The notes: generated by a model not told the origin, from the sequence alone. A DNA stretch of 64,000 bases from an uncultured Gammaproteobacteria bacterium (GCA_964648205.1 CAZYNT010000001.1:47765-111764); one strand, 5' to 3'; shown: positions 16,735 through 28,239, counted from the first letter of the stretch. Translations and numbers: made by a program.

Positions 16735-17496
16735 TTAAAGCCAGCGGGCCGATAAAAGAATAAGAATAATGATTAAGGAGCCGATGACGAGCAGCCATTT
16801 TAAATTTTTATAATAAAGACGCCCGTCGGCGCGCCAATCATCAAACAAAACCAAGAGATAAAAAATGACCGCCAAAAGAAGCCCGAGAATATTATAATTG
16901 AGAGGTAGAAGGAAGAGAGCTCCGGCCGATTCGGCCAAGATCAAAACTTTTACTCCCCAAAAAATCTTCTGTTCCGCTCTAATATTTTTTTCCAATATCA
17001 AGAATTGGCCGAAGAGCCCGAAACTAATCAGGGCAAAAACCAAGAGTAGGATAGAAAAAGGCCAGCTCAAAAAAATAGGCAAAGCGTATAAAGACGAGGC
17101 GATGGCGAAAGTCGAGAGAAAGGAGCCGCTGGTAAGCAAACGGCGCAGCTTGATTGCGCGTTCCGGAGCGCCGAAAGAAAAATAATAATAAATATTTTGC
17201 AGATAAAAAAAGATGAACCAGGCATTTAAAAGAAAAATTACCTGGATCCAGAATTGGCTGACAATCATGGCGCTATAAAAAGAAAAGCTCAAATAAAATA
17301 AGCTGGGCGGCAGAACGAAAACCAGCCAAAATTTAAGACTTTGTTTTCTTATAAGCCGGCGGACGCCGAAAGTAATAATTAACAAGCCCAGACTCAAAGC
17401 GATAAAGAAAAAATCCGGTTTGAAGATAAAAATCTCGTCCAGAACCCAAAGCAAAAACGGAATCAAAATTAAATACAAATAATTATTTTTCATCAT
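16735..17496 (-). CDS. Hypothetical polytopic membrane protein
   Basis: 253 aa, strongly hydrophobic throughout with six or more predicted helices. Confidence 0.5.
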   Translation of the reverse strand: MMKNNYLYLILIPFLLWVLDEIFIFKPDFFFIALSLGLLIITFGVRRLIRKQSLKFWLVFVLPPSLFYLSFSFYSAMIVSQFWIQVIFLLNAWFIFFYLQNIYYYFSFGAPERAIKLRRLLTSGSFLSTFAIASSLYALPIFLSWPFSILLLVFALISFGLFGQFLILEKNIRAEQKIFWGVKVLILAESAGALFLLPLNYNILGLLLAVIFYLLVLFDDWRADGRLYYKNLKWLLVIGSLIIILILLSARWL

Positions 17497-17505
17497 AAGC
17501 CTAAA

Positions 17506-19935
17506 CTAAGGATTAGTTGAGCTGCCTGTGTCCGGAGCAGAGCTTCCCTCTGCGGCGAGCGGCGGAATAGGCGGTTCTAGAGACGGCGTGCTTGAACCTA
17601 GAGACGAAGCTGGCGCGGAGGCGGATGTTCCGCCCTCGGAAACGCCCGCTTCGCCCGACAAAGGAGCCGGAACGGGGTTCGGAGCCGGAACGGGGTTCGG
17701 AGTAATAATATAATCGTTGCCGCCGCTTGTCAAAATCAAGCTTTTTACCGAACCAAGATCTTTCAGGCTGTTAATCTTTAAAAATTTGTTGGAAAAAGTA
17801 TAAAGATCGTCATTGATATACAAGCTGCGCTTGACTGTATTATCATAATAATTATATCCGCCCCAATAATCTGACCCGGAAAAATTCCCGCCCTCCGAAT
17901 GGTCTATTCCTCCCTTGAAAGTGAATTTATTGTTATCCGTATTGAAAACTAACGATCCGGCAAAGGAGATCCGCCCGTTCTCCCGCAGGACCGCCGGCAG
18001 CACTAATAAATTTTTCGCTTCCGAGTAAAGAAACGCCTTATGATCCTGCAAAGCAATTGAATCGCTCCCCGAATCGCCGAACATATATGAATCTAATTCT
18101 TTGGGCTTGTCCAGGTCAGTAAAATCAAACAGGGATATTTTTAAACCTTTTACCTTTACGCTGCCGCCCGCATCTTCTTCCGCGTCTCGCCCGAAGCCGA
18201 TTATTTTATTGCCATTTTTATCGGCTGGATGGAGATAATTTGAAAACCCGGGCAGCTTGATAGCGCCCAATACGCTCGGCTTAGCTGGATCGCTTAGGCT
18301 GATGGCATATAGCGGATCGGTCTTTTTGAAAGTTACCAGATAAAGCCGGTCTCCCATGAAGCGGGCCGCATAAATACGCTCCGTAGTCGCCAGATTCTCT
18401 AAACTGCCCACCACTTTCAATTCGCCATTTAAGATATATACATTACTGTAAGAATCTTCCGGCTTATCGGTCAGGCGCGACCATATAGGATTGCGGGTGG
18501 TGGCGATACGGAAATAATCGCCGTTTTCATCCATAGAAAATTGATTTAAAACCTGGCCGCTTACTTCTCCCATTCCCTTATACTCCACGCTTTTACCATT
18601 AATCGCAATCTTGTGGATGACGGTTTTCTCCATATTCTTGGCCTGCTCAATCAGCTTCTGCTTTAAAGCATCATCAAGGTTGGCTTGCAAATTTTTCTGG
18701 GCTTCTTCGCTCAAACTATTCAAATAGCGATCAATAATCGCCGCCACTTTCGCCTTCTTCTCGTTCTTAGCCAAGATGAAGTTGGCTGAAGCCTCAATCT
18801 TAGTGATTTTATCCTGATCATCGGCACTTAGCTGCGAAAAAACTATTTCCCTTTTCACGGTCTGTTCTAAATCATATTCATTAATATATTCCGTATAGGT
18901 AATATAAATATTGGACGGGGAAACGTAGAGATTCTGGCCGTAATTCATCAAATATGATTGGCCGTTAATGGCTTCGCCATTATCTTTGATGTTGATTGCG
19001 GTGACATTGGAAAAATTATACGAGTCGTATGGGATGTCAAAATAATAAACATCGGGCGCAAAGCATTTTTCAAACTGATCGCACGCATTTGATAAAACGA
19101 CCCCCTTATCCAAAACTCTGGGCAGAAGCGGCTCATTCTCAATATAATTAGCCGAGCTGTTAGTGAATAAATAAACGTAATCGCCGATTAAACGGGCGTC
19201 GGAATACGAGCCTTCAAAATCCAAATCGCGCGCTAATTTCGGGTCAGCCGGATTAGCCAAATCAAAAACCTTGAAAAAAGTATACGGATTTTGGCGGCGG
19301 AAGCTTCGATATGTCTCCATGGCGTAAATCTGCTGGTCGGCCCCGAAAACAACCAAGCTGGAGCCGCTTATAAAAATATCTTGCGGACGCGACTTGAAGG
19401 TAATCGTGCTCAAAACCGCAGACTCCGTGGCGGGGTTAACTTTTATTATCTTTAATTCATTGCGCACGAGCGCATAAATATAATTGCCGTCTGTTTTAAT
19501 AATATCAGCTTCATCAACGCCGGCGACTTGGTTGTTGGTTGTCGAATAGTCGTTTGCCGCCGATGCTTCCAAACTACCAGTTCCCGCGCTGGCGCTGCTT
19601 TCAGATATAGCGGAATCAGCCGTCGGCGCCATGGTGGATGTTAAGGCTTTAGTCGAAAAACTACCCGCTTGCTCGCGCATCACAATGTTGCCGCCGCTAC
19701 CTGAACTATTATTCTCTTCCAAAAAAGCTTTGAGTTCGTCATAATTCGCGAATTTCTTAATTTGTTTTGTGCTGGTCGCCGTTTCTTCTTCTTTAGCCTC
19801 TTCAATATTATTAGCGTCATTAACATTATTTAATGCATTATCGACCGTTTTCTTTTTCCAAGGAAGCGTGCATCCGCTTATTAAAACAGTTAAAACCGCT
19901 AGAACTAGGGTTAATTTAAATATTTTTTTTAACAT
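17506..19935 (-). CDS. Secreted lipoprotein with a beta-propeller-like domain and a Pro/Ser/Ala-rich C-terminal tail
   Basis: Lipobox LISGCTL after the signal peptide. Repeated beta-strand blocks through ~650 aa. C-terminal PNPVPAPNPVPAP repeats and a Ser/Gly/Ala low-complexity tail. Confidence 0.55.
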   Translation of the reverse strand: MLKKIFKLTLVLAVLTVLISGCTLPWKKKTVDNALNNVNDANNIEEAKEEETATSTKQIKKFANYDELKAFLEENNSSGSGGNIVMREQAGSFSTKALTSTMAPTADSAISESSASAGTGSLEASAANDYSTTNNQVAGVDEADIIKTDGNYIYALVRNELKIIKVNPATESAVLSTITFKSRPQDIFISGSSLVVFGADQQIYAMETYRSFRRQNPYTFFKVFDLANPADPKLARDLDFEGSYSDARLIGDYVYLFTNSSANYIENEPLLPRVLDKGVVLSNACDQFEKCFAPDVYYFDIPYDSYNFSNVTAINIKDNGEAINGQSYLMNYGQNLYVSPSNIYITYTEYINEYDLEQTVKREIVFSQLSADDQDKITKIEASANFILAKNEKKAKVAAIIDRYLNSLSEEAQKNLQANLDDALKQKLIEQAKNMEKTVIHKIAINGKSVEYKGMGEVSGQVLNQFSMDENGDYFRIATTRNPIWSRLTDKPEDSYSNVYILNGELKVVGSLENLATTERIYAARFMGDRLYLVTFKKTDPLYAISLSDPAKPSVLGAIKLPGFSNYLHPADKNGNKIIGFGRDAEEDAGGSVKVKGLKISLFDFTDLDKPKELDSYMFGDSGSDSIALQDHKAFLYSEAKNLLVLPAVLRENGRISFAGSLVFNTDNNKFTFKGGIDHSEGGNFSGSDYWGGYNYYDNTVKRSLYINDDLYTFSNKFLKINSLKDLGSVKSLILTSGGNDYIITPNPVPAPNPVPAPLSGEAGVSEGGTSASAPASSLGSSTPSLEPPIPPLAAEGSSAPDTGSSTNP
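17666..17701. repeat. 18-bp perfect tandem duplication (AGCCGGAACGGGGTTCGG x2) inside the 3' end of the lipoprotein gene
   Basis: Read directly in the sequence. It encodes the PNPVPA repeat on the minus strand. Confidence 0.8.
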
Positions 19936-20029: not shown

Positions 20030-20728
20030 TTATTTTATTTCCACTTCTAACCCCACCGCTACGCGATCATAAATATATTGGGCCGGACCGATGCCTAAAC
20101 GGATACATCCGTGAGAAACCGGTTTTCCGAGATGGTCTGCGCCTTCGCGATAACCGCTGGGCCAAACCGGCAGTTCATGAATACCGAACTGGCCGCTACC
20201 CAAGCCAAGCCAAAAAGGCATCCATAACTTATAAGTTTTCGACCACGCTTTGGGAACTTTATTGACTATCTTAAACTTACCCTTTGGAGTCGGCATAGCC
20301 GGCTTTCCCGTAGATACAGGGGATTCTTTCCAGAGATTACCGGCGACATAATATTTTAATTTCTGATTTTTCAAATCAATTTCTAATTTTTGTGCTAACT
20401 TTTTAGTGGAACTCGACAGCGGATCATAAGCCCAATCAACTTCCAGACCGTCTTGCCATCCATCGCCATCCGAATCCGGGTTCAAAGGGTCGGTCTTAAA
20501 TTTTAATTCAAAATAATCGCTTAAGCCGTCCTTATCAACATCGCTCTTTGCCAATCTTATCTTCTCTGGATTGAAAGGAGAATAGCCGTTGCTTATTTCT
20601 TGAGTATTGTTATAGCCATCATTATCGGAATCAAGCGCTTCTTCGGCTCTAATCGGCGCGGCCATAAAAAAATAAATGAATAAAAGCAAAACCCCGTAAA
20701 TAATTGGTCCCTGTCTTTTGAGTCTCAT
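20030..20728 (-). CDS. L,D-transpeptidase (YkuD domain) with N-terminal calcium-binding DxDxDG-type repeats
   Basis: Signal peptide. DSDNDGYNN, DVDKDGLSDYFE and DSDGDGWQDGLEVDWAYDPL repeats. Catalytic HxG...SHGCIRL motif. Confidence 0.8.
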   Translation of the reverse strand: MRLKRQGPIIYGVLLLFIYFFMAAPIRAEEALDSDNDGYNNTQEISNGYSPFNPEKIRLAKSDVDKDGLSDYFELKFKTDPLNPDSDGDGWQDGLEVDWAYDPLSSSTKKLAQKLEIDLKNQKLKYYVAGNLWKESPVSTGKPAMPTPKGKFKIVNKVPKAWSKTYKLWMPFWLGLGSGQFGIHELPVWPSGYREGADHLGKPVSHGCIRLGIGPAQYIYDRVAVGLEVEIK

Positions 20729-22322: not shown

Positions 22323-25019
22323 TTATAACTCAGCGGCCTTTTCAATTTCAATTTCCGCCCGCGAATTGATAATTACCGTATCCCGCCGCTTGAGTTCGCC
22401 GCTTAATATTTTGTTGGCGATGCTATCTTCAACTTTGTCTTGGAGCAAGCGCCGGAGCGGCCGGGCGCCGAATTTCGGATCGTAGCCCTCATGCGCGAGT
22501 ATGGCCGCACCGTCCTTATCCGCCTTAAGATTTATCCCTTTATCGCTTAAACCTTTTTTAATCTTCTTGAGCATCAACGTAGCAATCGCCAAAACATCCT
22601 TCTCGCTGAGCGGCTTGAAGACGATAATCCCGTCAAAACGATTAATGAGCTCGGGGCGCATATATTTATTCAATTGGTTGTCGATAAGCTCTTGCTTGAT
22701 AATATTAATATTTGCTTTAGCGCGAATCTGCTCCTGGATGTAAAGAGCGCCGATATTGGAGGTCGCGATAATGATCGATTCCGTGAAACTAATAGTTCTT
22801 CCCTGGCCGTCGGTTAAGCGGCCATCATCTAACAGCTGCAAAAACAGATTTAAAATATCAGGATGCGCCTTTTCGATTTCATCTAAAAGAATTAAGGAAA
22901 ACGGTTTTTTGCGGACGGCCTCGGTTAAATACCCCAAAGCGCCGTCGACGTCTCCAATCATTTTTCGGACGCTGTCCGGATACTGGTATTCGCTCATATC
23001 AACCCGAATCAAGTAATCTTCATCGCCGAAATAAACCTGACTGACCGCTTTAGCAAGCTCTGTTTTACCGACGCCGGTCGGACCGAGAAAAAGGAAGCTG
23101 GCAATCGGGCGTTTCCCTTCCTTGAGCTGAGCGCGGGCGCGGCGCAAGCTGGAGGCGACCGCCTTGACCGCCTCCTCTTGATCTACCAAGCGCTTATGAA
23201 TTTCTACCTCTAAATTTAATAACTTCTGGCTCTCGTCAACCGTAACTTTATTGGCGGGAATCCCGGTAATTTCACCAATAGCCGCCGCCACCTCTTCGCT
23301 GCCGCAAAAACATTTCGTCGGATCGTTTTGAAAATTTTTCGCTGCAATAAGCGCCGCTTTCTCGAGCAGATTAATCGCTTTAAGCGGCAAGAATTTATCA
23401 TGCAGATAGCGTTCAGACATTTTTACCGCCTGTTCTAAAGCGCCGTAAACAATATAGACGTCATACTTGGATTCTAAGAAACCGACCTTACTCTCAAGAA
23501 TCTGAATTGCTTCATTGAATTCTGGTTCTTTTATGCCGACGGTTGTTAAAACCGTGCCAAGCGATTTATTCTCTATATACTTAGAATAATTTTCCGTGGT
23601 CGCCGAAGCTAAGCACATTAAATGTTTGCGGCTTAGCGCCTCGGCCAAAACTTCCGATAAATCCAAGCTTTCTTGGCTGCCGGCGCTTATTCCAATCAAA
23701 TTTTCAATATTATCAATATATAAGATAATATTGCCGGAATGGTTGATTTCGCTGATTGCGGTCAATAGGCGTTCTTCCGCTTGAGCTGCATCAGCGCCGC
23801 TTACAAGGCGCGAAACATCAAGCTCGACTAAGCGCTTGTCCTTCAAAAAAGCGGGGACTCGTTCTTCAACCATCAGCTGTGCTAATCCGGTAATAATTGT
23901 GCTCTTGCCGACGCCGCTGGGGCCGACCAAAAGAACGCCGCTATGACCGCCGATGAAAGACTCGAAAATAGAATTGATTTCTTTCTGCCGGCCGACGCAG
24001 ATGTCGTTAGCTCCATATTTTGATTGGATGGTAACGTCGTGGGAAAAATGATCAAGGGTCGGCGTGGCAATGGCCGTATACGCGCGGTTCATGCCCGTAC
24101 CAGGCTTAAGAAGCGCTAATTTACGATATGATTTATAACTTGCCAGCATGCGGCGATTGACTCTGAACCATTCAACCGTGTTGACGATTTTATTATTATC
24201 AATCTCTAAATCATATAGAATTTCGGCCAAACGCGGATCTTTCTGATAGCAGAAGGAAATAAGGTTTAAAACGTCGACGCTATCTTGATTCAAATTATAA
24301 GCCTCGACAAAGGCCAATATTAAAACTTCTTCCAGATTTGGAGCCAATTTGCTTCGTCCGGAAAAACCATTATCTTGCGATTTAATTAAACGGCGATCGA
24401 CGAGTTCGACTAATTTTTTAGCATCAACATTAAGGCGGATGAAAAGGGTTTGTATCTCTTTAACTTTAAGCAATACACGAAAAAGATGGATAATGGTCAC
24501 TTCTGTTTGGCGCAACTTATTGGCCAAAAGATAAGCATCTTCCAGTGCTTTGCTCGCGACCGTGTTGTAGGCCTTAGAAACGTTATATTTTTTTGGCTTT
24601 TCTCTCTTCCTGACTTTGTCGGAAGTAAAATTCCGATAATCGATCTTTTTAAGAGCCGCGCGCGCCTCGCTCTTCTTATAAAACAGAAACAAATCAAACC
24701 ATAAAGAAAGCACAAAAACTAAAATGAGTGGATGACTCTTATTCCAGAAGACTAAAAAGCGCAAAGGATGAGCAGACAATGTTCCCCAATTATAGAAAAC
24801 CCATAAGCCGAAAGCGAGCCAACCGGCAAAAATAATGAGCCAGGTTAAAAATTCAAAAATTCTTTCCGTATTTTCTTTAGTGCGCTCAATCGCAATCACT
24901 GACTTTTTTAAAACCTTATCCCAATATAAAAATCTTCCCAGAAACCAAGCGCCAGGACGGGCGCTGCTTGAATCGGGGCTAAAGACAATTTCTTCAGGAT
25001 TTGTTTTTTCAATTACCAT
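22323..25019 (-). CDS. Membrane-anchored Clp/Hsp100-family AAA+ protein (two N-terminal TM helices, Clp_N repeats, degenerate D1 and intact D2, no ClpB-type middle domain)
   Basis: D1 Walker A GPSGVGKS but Walker B IILYIDNIEN (canonical is IDELH), and the arginine-finger region SLGTVLT in place of ALERRFQ. D2 Walker A GPTGVGKT, Walker B LILLDEIEKAHP and GARPLRR are intact. Start set at the internal Met MVIEKTNPEE (25019). The 86 codons upstream overlap the next gene and look non-coding. Confidence 0.8.
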   Translation of the reverse strand: MVIEKTNPEEIVFSPDSSSARPGAWFLGRFLYWDKVLKKSVIAIERTKENTERIFEFLTWLIIFAGWLAFGLWVFYNWGTLSAHPLRFLVFWNKSHPLILVFVLSLWFDLFLFYKKSEARAALKKIDYRNFTSDKVRKREKPKKYNVSKAYNTVASKALEDAYLLANKLRQTEVTIIHLFRVLLKVKEIQTLFIRLNVDAKKLVELVDRRLIKSQDNGFSGRSKLAPNLEEVLILAFVEAYNLNQDSVDVLNLISFCYQKDPRLAEILYDLEIDNNKIVNTVEWFRVNRRMLASYKSYRKLALLKPGTGMNRAYTAIATPTLDHFSHDVTIQSKYGANDICVGRQKEINSIFESFIGGHSGVLLVGPSGVGKSTIITGLAQLMVEERVPAFLKDKRLVELDVSRLVSGADAAQAEERLLTAISEINHSGNIILYIDNIENLIGISAGSQESLDLSEVLAEALSRKHLMCLASATTENYSKYIENKSLGTVLTTVGIKEPEFNEAIQILESKVGFLESKYDVYIVYGALEQAVKMSERYLHDKFLPLKAINLLEKAALIAAKNFQNDPTKCFCGSEEVAAAIGEITGIPANKVTVDESQKLLNLEVEIHKRLVDQEEAVKAVASSLRRARAQLKEGKRPIASFLFLGPTGVGKTELAKAVSQVYFGDEDYLIRVDMSEYQYPDSVRKMIGDVDGALGYLTEAVRKKPFSLILLDEIEKAHPDILNLFLQLLDDGRLTDGQGRTISFTESIIIATSNIGALYIQEQIRAKANINIIKQELIDNQLNKYMRPELINRFDGIIVFKPLSEKDVLAIATLMLKKIKKGLSDKGINLKADKDGAAILAHEGYDPKFGARPLRRLLQDKVEDSIANKILSGELKRRDTVIINSRAEIEIEKAAEL

Positions 25020-25027
25020 ATTATTGA

Positions 25028-25396
25028 TTATTTCAGTACTTGAAAAATAAAAGCGAAAATTAATAAAGGAGGCAAAGCCAGCCAAAAGATTATAACTATC
25101 AGGCAAACTGCCAGCCAAATAAGTAGCGCGAAGCCGCGAAAGATTACTTGCACCAGACGCACCAAGAAGCTTATCAGGCGACCGGCCCAATCCGACTGCC
25201 CGTACATAGGCACAAAAATATTTTTCGCCCAGACGGAGAACCCTAATGATTTTTCTTGATCGCGCCAAAAATTCCAAACATTTCTGACAAGGCGGCCGAA
25301 CCCGACGCTATACCACCAGAGAGGAAAATAAACCACTTCTAAAAGCAAGGAAACGATTATTTTTCCGCTATATGTAAGGAAATTGTGTTTAAACAT
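25028..25396 (-). CDS. Small polytopic membrane protein (122 aa), first gene of the Hsp100 paralog operon
   Basis: Trp-rich hydrophobic ORF. Its stop lies 8 nt before the proposed Hsp100 start. Confidence 0.5.
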   Translation of the reverse strand: MFKHNFLTYSGKIIVSLLLEVVYFPLWWYSVGFGRLVRNVWNFWRDQEKSLGFSVWAKNIFVPMYGQSDWAGRLISFLVRLVQVIFRGFALLIWLAVCLIVIIFWLALPPLLIFAFIFQVLK

Positions 25397-25524: not shown

Positions 25525-25553
25525 TTGACAAGCTGCCTGCTCTAGCTTATTAT
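25525..25553 (+). promoter_or_regulatory. Sigma70-like promoter for clpB (TTGACA-N17-TATTAT)
   Basis: TTGACA at 25525-25530, a 17-nt spacer, and TATTAT at 25548-25553. Confidence 0.6.
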
Positions 25554-25558
25554 TATAA

Positions 25559-25585
25559 TTAGCAGTCTTAAACTAGGAGTGCTAA
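25559..25585 (+). promoter_or_regulatory. CIRCE-like inverted repeat (HrcA operator) immediately upstream of clpB
   Basis: TTAGCAGTC-N9-GAGTGCTAA versus the consensus TTAGCACTC-N9-GAGTGCTAA, one mismatch. The track's GTG start at 25579 lies inside this element. Confidence 0.7.
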
Positions 25586-25602: not shown

Positions 25603-28239
25603 ATGTTCAACAAATTTACTGATAAATCGCAAGAAGCTATCATTAATGCCCAAATAATCGCCTCTTCTTACGGCCAATCTAATATTGAGGCTCTCCATAT
25701 TTTACTCTCTCTGCTCCAGCAAAACGAAAGTTTGATTAAGCCGATACTCGAAAAAATGAAAATTGATCCGGAAATGATTGAAGATCTCACGATTAAGGAG
25801 CTGCAAAAGTTGCCACGCTTGAAAATCAACCCGACGAACGGCCCGGTTCAGGCTGTTTCGGGCACAGCTGAAACGGCCATTATTTTAGAGCGCGCGCAGA
25901 AAGAAGCGGATGGCATGAATGATGAATTTATTTCGACCGAACATATCCTGCTGGCTCTAATCGGCGTCCCTTCCCCGGCCCAAGCCGTTCTTCTCAGTTT
26001 TAAAGTAGAATATAAAAATATTAAAGAAATTTTAAAAGAGTTGCGCGGCGCGCAAACCATAAACGATCCTTACCCCGAAAACAAATACAAGGTCTTGGAA
26101 AAATATACGACCAATCTGACCGAACTGGCCCGCCAAGAGAAACTCGATCCGGTTATTGGCCGCGACTTGGAAATCCGCCGCATCATGCAGGTGCTTCTGC
26201 GCCGCACTAAAAATAATCCTGTCCTAATCGGTGAAGCCGGAACCGGCAAAACCGCCATCGTTGAGGGTCTAGCGCAAAGAATTATCGCCGGCGATGTACC
26301 GGAAAACCTGAAGAATAAGGAAGTCGTGACACTTGATTTGGGCGCTTTAGTAGCCGGGGCAAAATTCCGCGGCGAATTTGAAGACCGCCTTAAAGCCGTT
26401 CTTAAAGAAGTGAAATCGCAAAACGGACGAATCATTTTATTCATCGACGAGCTCCATACTTTAATCGGCGCGGGCGCTTCCGAAGGCTCGATGGACGCTT
26501 CAAATATGCTAAAACCGGCGTTAGCCCGCGGCGAACTGCGCACTATCGGCGCGACAACCACAAAAGAGTACCAAAAATATATTGAACGTGATGCCGCCTT
26601 GGAGAGACGTTTCCAGCCGATTATGGTTAACGAACCGAGCGTTGAAGATACTATCTCAATGCTCCGCGGACTTAAAGAAAAATATGAAGTCCATCATGGC
26701 GTCCGCATTACCGATAACGCGGTCATTGCCGCCGCTAAATTATCCAACCGCTATATCAGCGACCGTTTTTTGCCCGACAAGGCGGTGGACTTGATCGATG
26801 AAGCGACTTCATCGCTCCGTATGGAAATAGATTCGATGCCCGACGAGCTCGACCAGTTAAAACGCAAGATGAACCAGCTTGAATTAAACAAAGCCGGCAT
26901 CATGACAACTGATAAAAAATCCTCCCGGCTTAAAGCCGTCAACCAAGAGCTCGCGAGAATAAAAGAGAGGGCCAACCAGCTGGAACTGCACTGGAATAAT
27001 GAAAAAAATATCATTTCTCAAATCCGCAATTCAAAAAAAGAGATTGAAGATTTAAAAATCCGCGCCGAAATTACTCAGCGCCAAGGCGCCGATCTGACCG
27101 AAGTCGCGAAAATCAAATATGGCTTGATCCCGGAATTAGAAAATAAAATTAAGAAGCTCCAGGATGAATTGATAAAAATCCAAAAAAAAGGACAGCGTAT
27201 TCTAAAAGAAGAAGTTGACGAAGAAGATATTGCTAAAGTTATCGCCCGCTGGACCGGCATTCCGGTAAACCGGATGCTCCAAGATGAAATAACAAAACTG
27301 AGCGAAGCGGAAAATAAGCTGGGCGAAGAGGTGGTCGGGCAAGAAGAAGCAATCAAGGCCGTAGCTAATGCTCTACGCCGCAGCCGCGCCGGCATTAATG
27401 AAGAAAAAAAACCGATCGGATCATTTTTATTTGTCGGACCGACCGGCGTCGGAAAAACTGAACTCGCCAAGGCCCTGGCCACTTTTATGTTCGACGATGA
27501 AAAAGCTCTTATCCGCTTGGACATGAGTGAATTTATGGAGAAGCATTCGGTCGCCAAGCTGATCGGTTCTCCCCCCGGCTATGTCGGACATGACGACGGC
27601 GGCCAATTAACCGATAAGGTGCGGCGGCACCCCTATAGCGTCGTCCTCTTTGACGAAATCGAAAAGGCAAATCCTGATATGTTCAATGTGCTCCTCCAAA
27701 TTCTTGACGATGGACGGCTGACCGATTCTAAAGGACGAACCGTTAATTTTAAAAATACGATTATTATCATGACTTCTAATCTCGGCAATGAAGTTATTAA
27801 ACAGTATTCCATCGGCTTCGCCGATGAGAGCGACAAACAGGCGGCGGCGAAAATGCGCACCGGTGAGATGAAAGAAAAAATCGATAAAATTTTAAAAAAT
27901 CATTTCAAATTAGAATTCCTCAACCGAATCGATGAAATCGTCCTCTTTAGAAGCTTGTCGGGGGCGGCGCTGGAAAAAATTGTCGATCTTGAATTGTTAA
28001 AAGTAGAAAAACGCCTTCATAATAAAAATATCGCGCTCCGCATCAGTCCCAAAGTAAAAAAACTGCTTGCCGAAAAGGGCTATGATATTACTTATGGCGC
28101 CCGCCCCTTGAAGCGCATCATCCAAACCATGATTCTTGATGAACTCGCTTTAGAGATTATAGAAGGCAAAGTTAAAGAGGGCGATAAAGTAAGAATTGAA
28201 CTAGAAGACAAAGAAAAAGTTCTCATCCGTGTTAATTAA
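25603..28239 (+). CDS. clpB: Chaperone ClpB (Hsp104/ClpB disaggregase with coiled-coil middle domain)
   Basis: Start set at ATG 25603 ([13 protein letters not shown]). Both AAA modules have intact Walker A/B ([24 protein letters not shown]). A long coiled-coil M-domain lies between D1 and D2. Confidence 0.95.

Follow-up and report, generated by a model that had tools for sequence, protein, structure and literature searches.

A membrane-anchored Hsp100/Clp ATPase, here called TM-Clp (transmembrane Clp), is encoded on the minus strand of the stretch of DNA analysed here, a window of 64,000 nucleotides (nt) from a record titled 'uncultured Gammaproteobacteria bacterium' (GCA_964648205.1, CAZYNT010000001.1:47765-111764). 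TM-Clp is a new architectural variant of Hsp100, and its gene forms, with that of a 122-residue membrane protein directly upstream (the partner) and often with that of a GT4-type transferase downstream, a conserved two-gene, often three-gene, module of Patescibacteria with a likely role in the cell envelope. To our knowledge, all characterised Hsp100/Clp ATPases are soluble. A literature search, in which subscription literature was largely out of reach, turned up no account of any Hsp100 anchored in the membrane, nor of this family from the Candidate Phyla Radiation (CPR) or of the partner; a paper on the dcw cluster that it returned makes no mention of Clp. The open reading frame (ORF) of TM-Clp runs from an ATG at 25019 to a stop at 22323 and specifies 898 amino acids (Table 1). 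The earlier note on this DNA, made from the sequence alone, had described the same protein at 899 residues, a count that includes the stop codon. It had also described a layout of translational coupling, which the sequence bears out: the stop codon of the partner lies 8 nt ahead of the TM-Clp ATG.

Domain architecture and membrane anchor

Profile searches with Pfam recover the tandem AAA+ arrangement of class I Clp/Hsp100 proteins. D1 is composed of an AAA module (E = 7.7e-20) and AAA_lid_9 (1.7e-12), and D2 of AAA_2 (2.6e-53) and ClpB_D2-small (5.6e-23). The N-domain that accompanies them in class I is represented by one weak Clp_N repeat scoring 20.7 bits, which is exactly the gathering cut-off; Clp_N is precomputed for most homologues, and the region is all-helical in the AlphaFold model, which has a mean predicted local distance difference test score (pLDDT) of 86.8. 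The D1 and D2 of the earlier note are therefore borne out, but its plural 'Clp_N repeats' reduces to the single repeat that is significant in Pfam.

Two hydrophobic segments, residues 54-76 and 94-114, precede these domains, with Kyte-Doolittle 19-residue means of up to 2.05. AlphaFold draws them within long helices spanning residues 39-76 and 97-122 (pLDDT about 90), and N-terminal hydrophobic segments are found in all 74 diverse full-length representatives of the family, so that hydropathy, model and family-wide presence together back the two transmembrane helices originally proposed. Immediately after the helices, 13 Lys/Arg residues were counted from the sequence within about 30 positions; by the positive-inside rule this stretch would place the ATPase in the cytoplasm and, by way of the hairpin, the N-terminus likewise. 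The possibility that the true start lies downstream of the helices is excluded by 118 homologues of about 898 residues, which align from residue 1 of TM-Clp and conserve the sequence ahead of the helices; the start codon is thus secure.

The segment that precedes the hairpin is modelled with short strands at residues 13-15, 22-26 and 29-32, which together form a small beta-hairpin. Among the diverse family members, 55/74 possess two CxxC(xGxG) motifs here, the signature of a small N-terminal zinc ribbon; a conserved (F/L)-L-Y-W motif and then the membrane hairpin come after it. The two CxxC motifs occur in none of the 118 close relatives of the window protein, nor in that protein itself. This distribution indicates that the ribbon is ancestral in the family and that the window lineage has lost all four of its cysteines. 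Despite this loss, the window protein retains the predicted beta-hairpin and the F-L-Y-W motif.

A degenerate D1 and an intact D2

The state of each catalytic motif was read from a HMMER alignment to Bacillus subtilis ClpC and from MAFFT alignments to the window's own ClpB. D1 retains a Walker A motif, GPSGVGKS, that conforms to the canonical GxxGxGK[ST]. Its Walker B motif reads IDNIE where IDELH is canonical, exchanging the catalytic Glu for Asn, and the arginine-finger block ALERRFQ is replaced by SLGTVLT, such that both fingers are gone (RR to TV). The D1 pore loop, canonically KYRGEFE, reads ADAAQAE and has lost its Tyr. D2, by comparison, keeps Walker A, Walker B, the sensor-1 residue N755, the arginine finger R794 and the sensor-2 residues R856/R857. 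The alignments confirm the earlier description of a degenerate D1, in its Walker B motif and arginine fingers, alongside an intact D2. A competent D1 and tyrosine pore loops in both rings, which characterise class I enzymes, are not found in TM-Clp.

Decay of D1 is general among the 74 diverse representatives. In Walker A, one of N, Q, K, E or D frequently stands in place of the Ser/Thr, and R, V, A or M at times in place of the Lys; the 'DE' of Walker B is replaced by almost anything, and the arginine fingers are retained in only about 8/74. It had been proposed that D1 binds ATP without hydrolysing it. For the window protein this is plausible from its motifs; as a family trait it does not hold, since Walker A itself has decayed across the family (GKN, GKQ, GRT, GVS and others), so that binding of nucleotide by D1 is not conserved.

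The conservation of D2 is of a different order. Across 92 sequences, which reach down to about 35% identity, no substitution is seen at G646, G649, V650, G651, K652, T653, E714, K717 or N755, and conservation reaches 90% or more at R794, R856 and R857, a pattern which indicates that D2 is under purifying selection. Its pore loop has nevertheless been remodelled: the sequence GDVDGALGY is followed by LTE after a 5-residue deletion relative to the canonical loop, which removes the tyrosine of GYVG. In the AlphaFold model the loop comprises residues 689-696 (GDVDGALG), with Y697 opening the next helix, and the position of Y697 is variable across the family. Loss of the pore-loop tyrosine from D2 argues against ordinary substrate threading. 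No member has the canonical aromatic in D1. In D2, where most representatives have a short loop, about 69/74 lack it, the remaining 5 or so having Y or F at this position. Among 119 close relatives of the window protein, the shortened loop is near-invariant as GD[VS]DG[TA]LGY, which suggests that in this sub-lineage it is constrained rather than decaying.

Two coupling elements of other Hsp100 proteins are missing, as had been claimed. The linker between D1 and D2 measures 53 residues (also in 64/74 family members) against 176 in the adjoining ClpB, and the ClpC alignment leaps from TM-Clp residue 567 to 575; there is consequently no M-domain. Likewise, no ClpP-docking tripeptide of the form [LIVM]G[FL] is present in the SN...RPE segment of D2 in TM-Clp or in its 74 relatives, this segment being 37 residues long in 71/74 members as opposed to 47 in the adjoining ClpB-like protein, where an IGF is present. 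Without a ClpP loop and an M-domain, TM-Clp would be expected neither to feed a protease nor to work with DnaK.

These observations bear directly on the public annotation, according to which TM-Clp would be an ordinary ClpC/ClpA-type subunit of the ClpP protease that happens to have a hydrophobic N-terminus. In keeping with the source annotations, ClpC is its best match in the PDB and it is collinear with the ClpA model over residues 155-885. D2, however, lacks an IGF/VGF loop and is too short to accommodate one, every NCBIfam equivalog score is less than half its cut-off, the catalytic residues of D1 are lost, and the membrane hairpin and the partner are both conserved; these features contradict the annotation and make it extremely improbable. 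A tblastn search with an Escherichia coli ClpP sequence found no match in the window or the collected loci, a result that says nothing on the genome as a whole.

Relationship to known AAA+ families

TM-Clp is nearest to ClpC/ClpE by sequence, to ClpB by the length of its D2 loop and its lack of a ClpP loop, and to ClpA by its lack of an M-domain. No NCBIfam or Pfam model assigns it to a Clp subfamily, all scores being below cut-off. B. subtilis ClpC (1e-129) and ClpE (1.8e-113) are its top sequence matches in the PDB and share with it the order N-domain, D1, D2 and D2-small. Most family members also resemble ClpE in their N-terminal Cys4-type zinc ribbon; this zinc-binding domain is missing from the TM-Clp of the window and from all 118 of its close relatives. 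In contrast to ClpC and ClpE, TM-Clp has no VGF loop, M-domain/UVR motif, D1 Walker B Glu, arginine fingers or pore-loop Tyr, and it possesses a shortened D2 pore loop, a two-helix membrane hairpin that separates the zinc ribbon from the N-domain, and an obligate small membrane partner.

The highest NCBIfam score is obtained with ClpB/Hsp104 (TIGR03346), at 539 bits in two separate stretches, below half of the cut-off of 1232. The D2 domain of E. coli ClpB is not known to carry a ClpP loop, and TM-Clp is similar in this respect, but differs from ClpB in its missing M-domain, inactive D1 and membrane anchor. It shares with ClpA the lack of an M-domain and aligns with the ClpA model in the single collinear stretch noted above, yet it has no IGL loop, scores 463 bits against a cut-off of 993, and is set apart by its degenerate D1 and its anchor. 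Scores likewise fall below the cut-offs for ClpV/TssH (423 against 885), ClpG (440 against 1900) and ClpK (465 against 1900).

Outside the Hsp100 family, the closest architectural parallel is FtsH, which has two N-terminal transmembrane helices per subunit and small membrane partners (HflK/C); Msp1/ATAD1 and Bcs1 are analogous anchored AAA+ rings. TM-Clp is like FtsH in its two helices, in a substrate-entry face that would be oriented toward the membrane and in its small membrane partner. It differs in being a tandem Hsp100 ring of another AAA+ clade rather than a single classic AAA module, and in having no aromatic pore loop; the FtsH protease domain, Peptidase_M41, is not found among the best 25 of its 37 Pfam matches. 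D1 of Pex1/Pex6 and D2 of NSF are rings reduced to structural pseudo-ATPases, and Torsin has lost its pore-loop aromatics and depends upon a membrane-spanning cofactor (LAP1/LULL1). The likeness of TM-Clp to these proteins, and to SMAX1/D53, involves no specific sequence relationship, and TM-Clp is unlike Torsin in that its D2 keeps its own arginine finger, R794. SMAX1 is a weak match of TM-Clp in the PDB, and HSP101 of the Plasmodium PTEX complex is among the structural relatives returned by the same search.

The small membrane partner

The partner has no Pfam or NCBIfam match, and a comparison of its AlphaFold model with the PDB gave no fold match below E = 3. It belongs to a family of at least 1805 clusters at 90% identity, all of about 120 residues and all annotated as 'hypothetical'. 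Residues P25, W27, G32, P63-M-Y-G66 and S76 are invariant. The model (pLDDT 88) is composed of two long helices, residues 6-51 and 70-121, with the PMYGQxD loop between them, and the distribution of charges suggests that this conserved middle part is cytoplasmic. Similarity between the partner and the N-terminal membrane region of TM-Clp was also considered; BLASTP detected none (E 0.5), and the idea that one is a duplicate of the other was dropped.

A DNA pattern derived from the partner alone (WWY, 33 codons, PMYGQ) was scanned on the species-representative genomes of GTDB and recovered at least 120 loci, in all of which the spacing within the pattern is identical. TM-Clp lies directly downstream on the same strand in 107/107 testable partner loci, the other 13 ending at the edge of the locus. 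The partner also lies upstream of six distant TM-Clp members that were checked singly; distant partners include forms that the pattern misses, with WLF in place of WWY or with PMYGD or PMYGY, and one that had been overlooked by the gene caller. By gene adjacency, the 122-residue protein is an obligate companion of TM-Clp. From this linkage we infer a physical membrane complex of the two proteins.

Distribution in Patescibacteria

TM-Clp belongs to a large and deep family. When its first 320 residues were searched alone, 209 clusters at 50% identity were matched, 130 of them at E <= 1e-10, and these are mostly proteins of about 900 residues aligned from near the N-terminus. The named sources of partner/TM-Clp loci include Falkowbacteria, Uhrbacteria, Magasanikbacteria, Parcubacteria, Portnoybacteria and Nomurabacteria, and identity to the window protein across the collected loci ranges from about 37% to 75%. 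For all window genes examined, the nearest homologues belong to metagenome-assembled genomes (MAGs) of Candidatus Falkowbacteria or of the 'Patescibacteria group'. A Patescibacteria-type locus, with TM-Clp up to 74% identical to that of the window, is also carried by many MAGs titled 'uncultured Gammaproteobacteria bacterium' and by single ones titled Bacillota, Kapaibacterium and Anaerolineales (L003, L005, L014, L016 and about 50 further loci). The organism names of these third-party records are probably wrong.

Envelope and division genes beside the module

Downstream of TM-Clp, the gene most regularly encountered encodes a GT4 transferase. It is the very next gene in 44/68 loci with room downstream, where the gap often falls between -38 and +6 nt. 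Allowing for small spurious ORFs in between raises the number of loci with a GT4 gene at a distance of about 1 kb or less to roughly 56/68; in total, 58 GT4 ORFs were found downstream of TM-Clp across the collected loci. In the window, the GT4-QueH gene begins 17 nt past the TM-Clp stop, and the start of the following YkuD gene overlaps its stop by 4 nt (Table 1). Pfam thus recovers both the GT4-QueH fusion and the L,D-transpeptidase that had been placed downstream on the same strand.

The possibility that this GT4 is the MraY of the dcw cluster was rejected. NCBIfam models of WecA, a transferase of N-acetylglucosamine-1-phosphate (GlcNAc-1-P), outscore those of MraY in the window (112.9 against 62.1 bits) and in three distant lineages, albeit below both cut-offs, and on an 857-kb contig a separate gene containing MraY_sig1 adjoins ftsW, about 8 kb away. 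This scoring, coupled with the presence of a separate MraY, points to a WecA/TagO-type paralogue rather than MraY itself. In one MAG (GCA_964470025.1, P0168; locus L127, 4240-7935) a single ORF of 1231 residues comprises a complete TM-Clp fused to a GT4 domain.

A second link to the envelope is found upstream. In 26 loci, where TM-Clp is 37-43% identical to that of the window, mraZ-rsmH-ftsL, confirmed with NCBIfam, lies directly upstream of the partner/TM-Clp/GT4 unit on the same strand. These loci are Uhrbacteria- and Magasanikbacteria-like (L004, L017, L018, L021, L027, L036, L046, L055 and others). In classical dcw clusters the slot after ftsL is that of ftsI/pbpB. A YkuD L,D-transpeptidase is located downstream in about 12 related loci, and tgt, queH, DUF192 and rplU are other recurrent neighbours. 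The envelope link proposed from the window is strengthened by the invariable adjacency of the partner, by the conserved WecA-like GT4 downstream and by mraZ-rsmH-ftsL upstream in another lineage.

The fusion of GT4 to QueH, an epoxyqueuosine reductase (a cytosolic iron-sulphur enzyme), is present in 15 of about 58 loci (e.g. L012, L014, L016 and L037). Elsewhere queH is a separate adjoining gene, and in other lineages tgt, which also belongs to the queuosine pathway, is often the first gene upstream of the module. No evident function explains why a WecA-like transferase should be paired with queuosine genes.

Further downstream in the window, positions 17506-19935(-) encode a beta-propeller protein of 809 residues (PF09826, E 9e-146), which is lipoprotein-like, has a low-complexity tail rich in Pro, Ser and Ala, and is found downstream in 13 related loci too. 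Positions 16735-17496(-) encode a 253-residue polytopic membrane protein with no Pfam match.

Table 1. Features of the TM-Clp locus, in window coordinates
Feature	Position	Strand	Basis
Small membrane partner gene, 122 residues	25028..25396	-	ORF; FPxWWY and PMYGQxD motifs, hydrophobic C-terminal helix
TM-Clp gene, 898-residue membrane-anchored Hsp100 paralogue	22323..25019	-	ORF, Pfam, homologues, AlphaFold
N-terminal segment, probably cytoplasmic, residues 1-37: putative zinc-ribbon beta-hairpin remnant, then F-L-Y-W motif	24909..25019	-	AlphaFold, relatives
Predicted transmembrane helix 1, residues 54-76	24792..24860	-	Hydropathy; AlphaFold helix 39-76; 74/74 diverse representatives
Predicted transmembrane helix 2, residues 94-114, then Lys/Arg-rich stretch, probably cytoplasmic	24678..24740	-	Hydropathy; AlphaFold helix 97-122
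Divergent Clp N-domain, residues 147-302	24114..24581	-	Pfam Clp_N residues 162-209, E 4.7e-4; all-helical model
D1 AAA+ module and lid, residues 340-570, putative pseudo-ATPase	23310..24002	-	Pfam, alignments
D2 AAA+ module and D2-small, residues 574-898, catalytic motifs intact	22326..23300	-	Pfam, alignments, AlphaFold
WecA-like GT4 polyprenyl-phosphate N-acetylhexosamine-1-phosphate transferase fused to QueH, 526 residues	20725..22305	-	Pfam Glycos_transf_4 and QueH
L,D-transpeptidase YkuD with TSP3 repeat	20030..20728	-	Pfam
Divergent clpB-like gene, 878 residues from ATG	25603..28239	+	Full M-domain and IGF-containing D2 insertion
clpB promoter-like site, then CIRCE-like inverted repeat	25525..25585	+	Sequence pattern

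The divergent clpB and its operator

Divergently from the module, the window encodes a ClpB-like protein, an arrangement shared by 25 loci, all of the lineage in which TM-Clp is at least 54% identical to that of the window. A near-consensus sigma-70-type promoter (TTGACA-17-TATTAT) at 25525-25553 precedes the likely clpB ATG at 25603. Between the two, at 25559-25585, lies an inverted repeat, TTAGCAGTC-N9-GAGTGCTAA, which resembles the controlling inverted repeat of chaperone expression (CIRCE) with one mismatch, where 0.02 such sites would be expected by chance. The repeat implies that clpB is under HrcA control in this CPR genome. An extension of this control to the partner/TM-Clp operon is not supported, as the single CIRCE belongs to the clpB promoter and is separated from the partner ATG by 163 nt, and the operon is not obviously heat-shock regulated.

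The gene had been described as a fully canonical, divergent clpB with its own heat-shock operator. Divergence and operator hold, but canonical it is not: in addition to a full M-domain (within the 176-residue D1-D2 linker), the protein carries a 12-residue insertion in D2 that contains IGF, and with 1198.9 bits in NCBIfam it narrowly misses the cut-off for ClpB, 1232.1. The insertion resembles the ClpP-docking loops of ClpC (VGF) and ClpA (IGL), so that the protein looks like a naturally occurring hybrid of ClpB and ClpC, reminiscent of the engineered 'BAP' variant.

Possible modes of action

The reading favoured here, with a confidence that stops a little short of even, is that TM-Clp and its partner form a D2-driven, non-proteolytic, Patescibacteria-specific membrane AAA+ complex that acts on a client of envelope biogenesis. 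TM-Clp would assemble as a hexamer, held by its N-terminal helical hairpins at the cytoplasmic face of the membrane, and an anchor in this position would point the N-domain/D1 face at the bilayer, as in FtsH. D1, as a pseudo-ATPase, would probably serve only as an assembly scaffold, in the manner of the degenerate rings of Pex1/6 or NSF, leaving D2 as the sole motor. With the aromatic pore-loop residues of both rings gone in the window lineage, processive threading of polypeptides is improbable; instead, ATP hydrolysis by D2 may serve to extract, assemble or remodel a membrane protein that is its dedicated client, for which the WecA-like GT4 transferase encoded alongside, or divisome proteins, would be the best candidates. 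The partner, by means of the conserved W-rich/PMYGQxD region that is presumed to be cytoplasmic, could be a co-anchor or an adaptor, and would co-assemble with the hairpin and zinc-ribbon region of TM-Clp. The architecture, motif states, family-wide conservation and gene linkage are established by the data, and hexamer, partner contact, client and mode of action are inferred from them.

The predicted orientation of the ring also fits a more general function. A second model proposes that TM-Clp is a quality-control unfoldase or extractase for membrane proteins at large, an FtsH- or Msp1-like dislocase without a protease, which would thread damaged or mislocalised membrane proteins from the D1 side and pass them to cytosolic chaperones such as the adjoining ClpB. 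The topology would turn the face by which substrates enter towards the bilayer, D2 is an intact motor, and the module is divergently paired with clpB in the 25 loci of the window lineage; moreover, an aromatic D2 loop persists in some members and the D1 arginine fingers in others, the two sets overlapping only in part, as would be expected if the ancestor threaded its substrates. This model is weakened by the lack of a pore-loop aromatic in D1 throughout the family and in D2 of all but the few representatives mentioned, the window protein included, by the assignment of the CIRCE operator to clpB rather than to the partner/TM-Clp operon, and by the placement of the module, in other lineages, in the dcw operon and not near chaperone genes. 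On balance a general dislocase seems unlikely.

The same loss of aromatics could be taken further, to a protein that performs no mechanical work. According to this third model, TM-Clp would be a scaffold or nucleotide switch, comparable to plant SMAX1/D53 or to Torsin, in which ATP at D2 toggles the assembly of an envelope enzyme complex or regulates it. The decay of D1 throughout the family, pore loops that are non-aromatic and differ in sequence between sub-lineages, and an obligate small membrane cofactor would all suit such a role, and Hsp100 derivatives with non-unfoldase functions exist, SMAX1 being among the PDB matches. In D2, however, the full set of hydrolysis residues, the trans-acting arginine finger and sensor-2 included, is strongly constrained, as is typical of a working ring motor, and the high conservation of the short D2 loop in the window lineage suggests contact with something in the pore. 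A purely regulatory role is for these reasons regarded as quite improbable.

Were TM-Clp hexameric, 12 helices of the anchor and at least 6-12 of the partner would be gathered around the axis of the ring, which raises the prospect of an export or translocation motor, a bacterial analogue of the HSP101-EXP2 pair of Plasmodium PTEX, that would drive a polypeptide or a lipid-linked glycan made by GT4 across the membrane, by way of a channel built from the anchor helices and the partner subunits. The linkage of the module to a glycosyltransferase that uses a lipid carrier and the presence of PTEX HSP101 among its structural relatives fit this idea. Yet Hsp100 rings move their substrate from the N/D1 side to the D2 side, which here would lead away from the bilayer, the pore loops lack aromatics, and no channel-like fold was recognised in the partner; an export motor is accordingly a very remote prospect.

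Several observations nevertheless weigh against the envelope-remodelling complex favoured above. A few TM-Clp members keep a GYxG or GFxG loop in D2, so threading may be ancestral and is perhaps still the actual activity; conversely, the loss of the pore-loop aromatic could equally mean that mechanical function has been lost. The transmembrane topology is a prediction based upon hydropathy, charge distribution and AlphaFold helices. The TM-Clp::GT4 fusion, a singleton cluster, is either a Rosetta-stone fusion or an artefact of assembly or of a stop codon, and no GT4 gene adjoins the module in the sub-lineage whose D1 has kept its arginine fingers. The recurrence of tgt, queH and rplU suggests, furthermore, that gene order in small CPR genomes is sticky and may persist without functional coupling.

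Implications for the biology of Patescibacteria

A broader generalisation would be that TM-Clp represents a membrane-integral Hsp100 class found only in Patescibacteria, with one active ring, a non-threading mode of action and a cofactor of 120 residues, coupled to envelope construction through control or assembly of a WecA-type glycosyltransferase or through the divisome. Taken as a whole this is possible but doubtful. If true, a membrane-integral Hsp100 with a dead D1, non-aromatic loops and an obligate small membrane cofactor would extend the known scope of Hsp100 motors. In the databases, thousands of proteins entered as 'ATP-dependent Clp protease ATP-binding subunit ClpC' probably bear the wrong name. 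The TM-Clp module is one of few strongly conserved lineage-specific modules in the CPR, whose envelope and division biology is largely obscure, and its links to a WecA-type transferase, an L,D-transpeptidase and, in some lineages, mraZ-rsmH-ftsL offer a testable entry into how these ultra-small, mostly uncultured bacteria build their envelope and divide.

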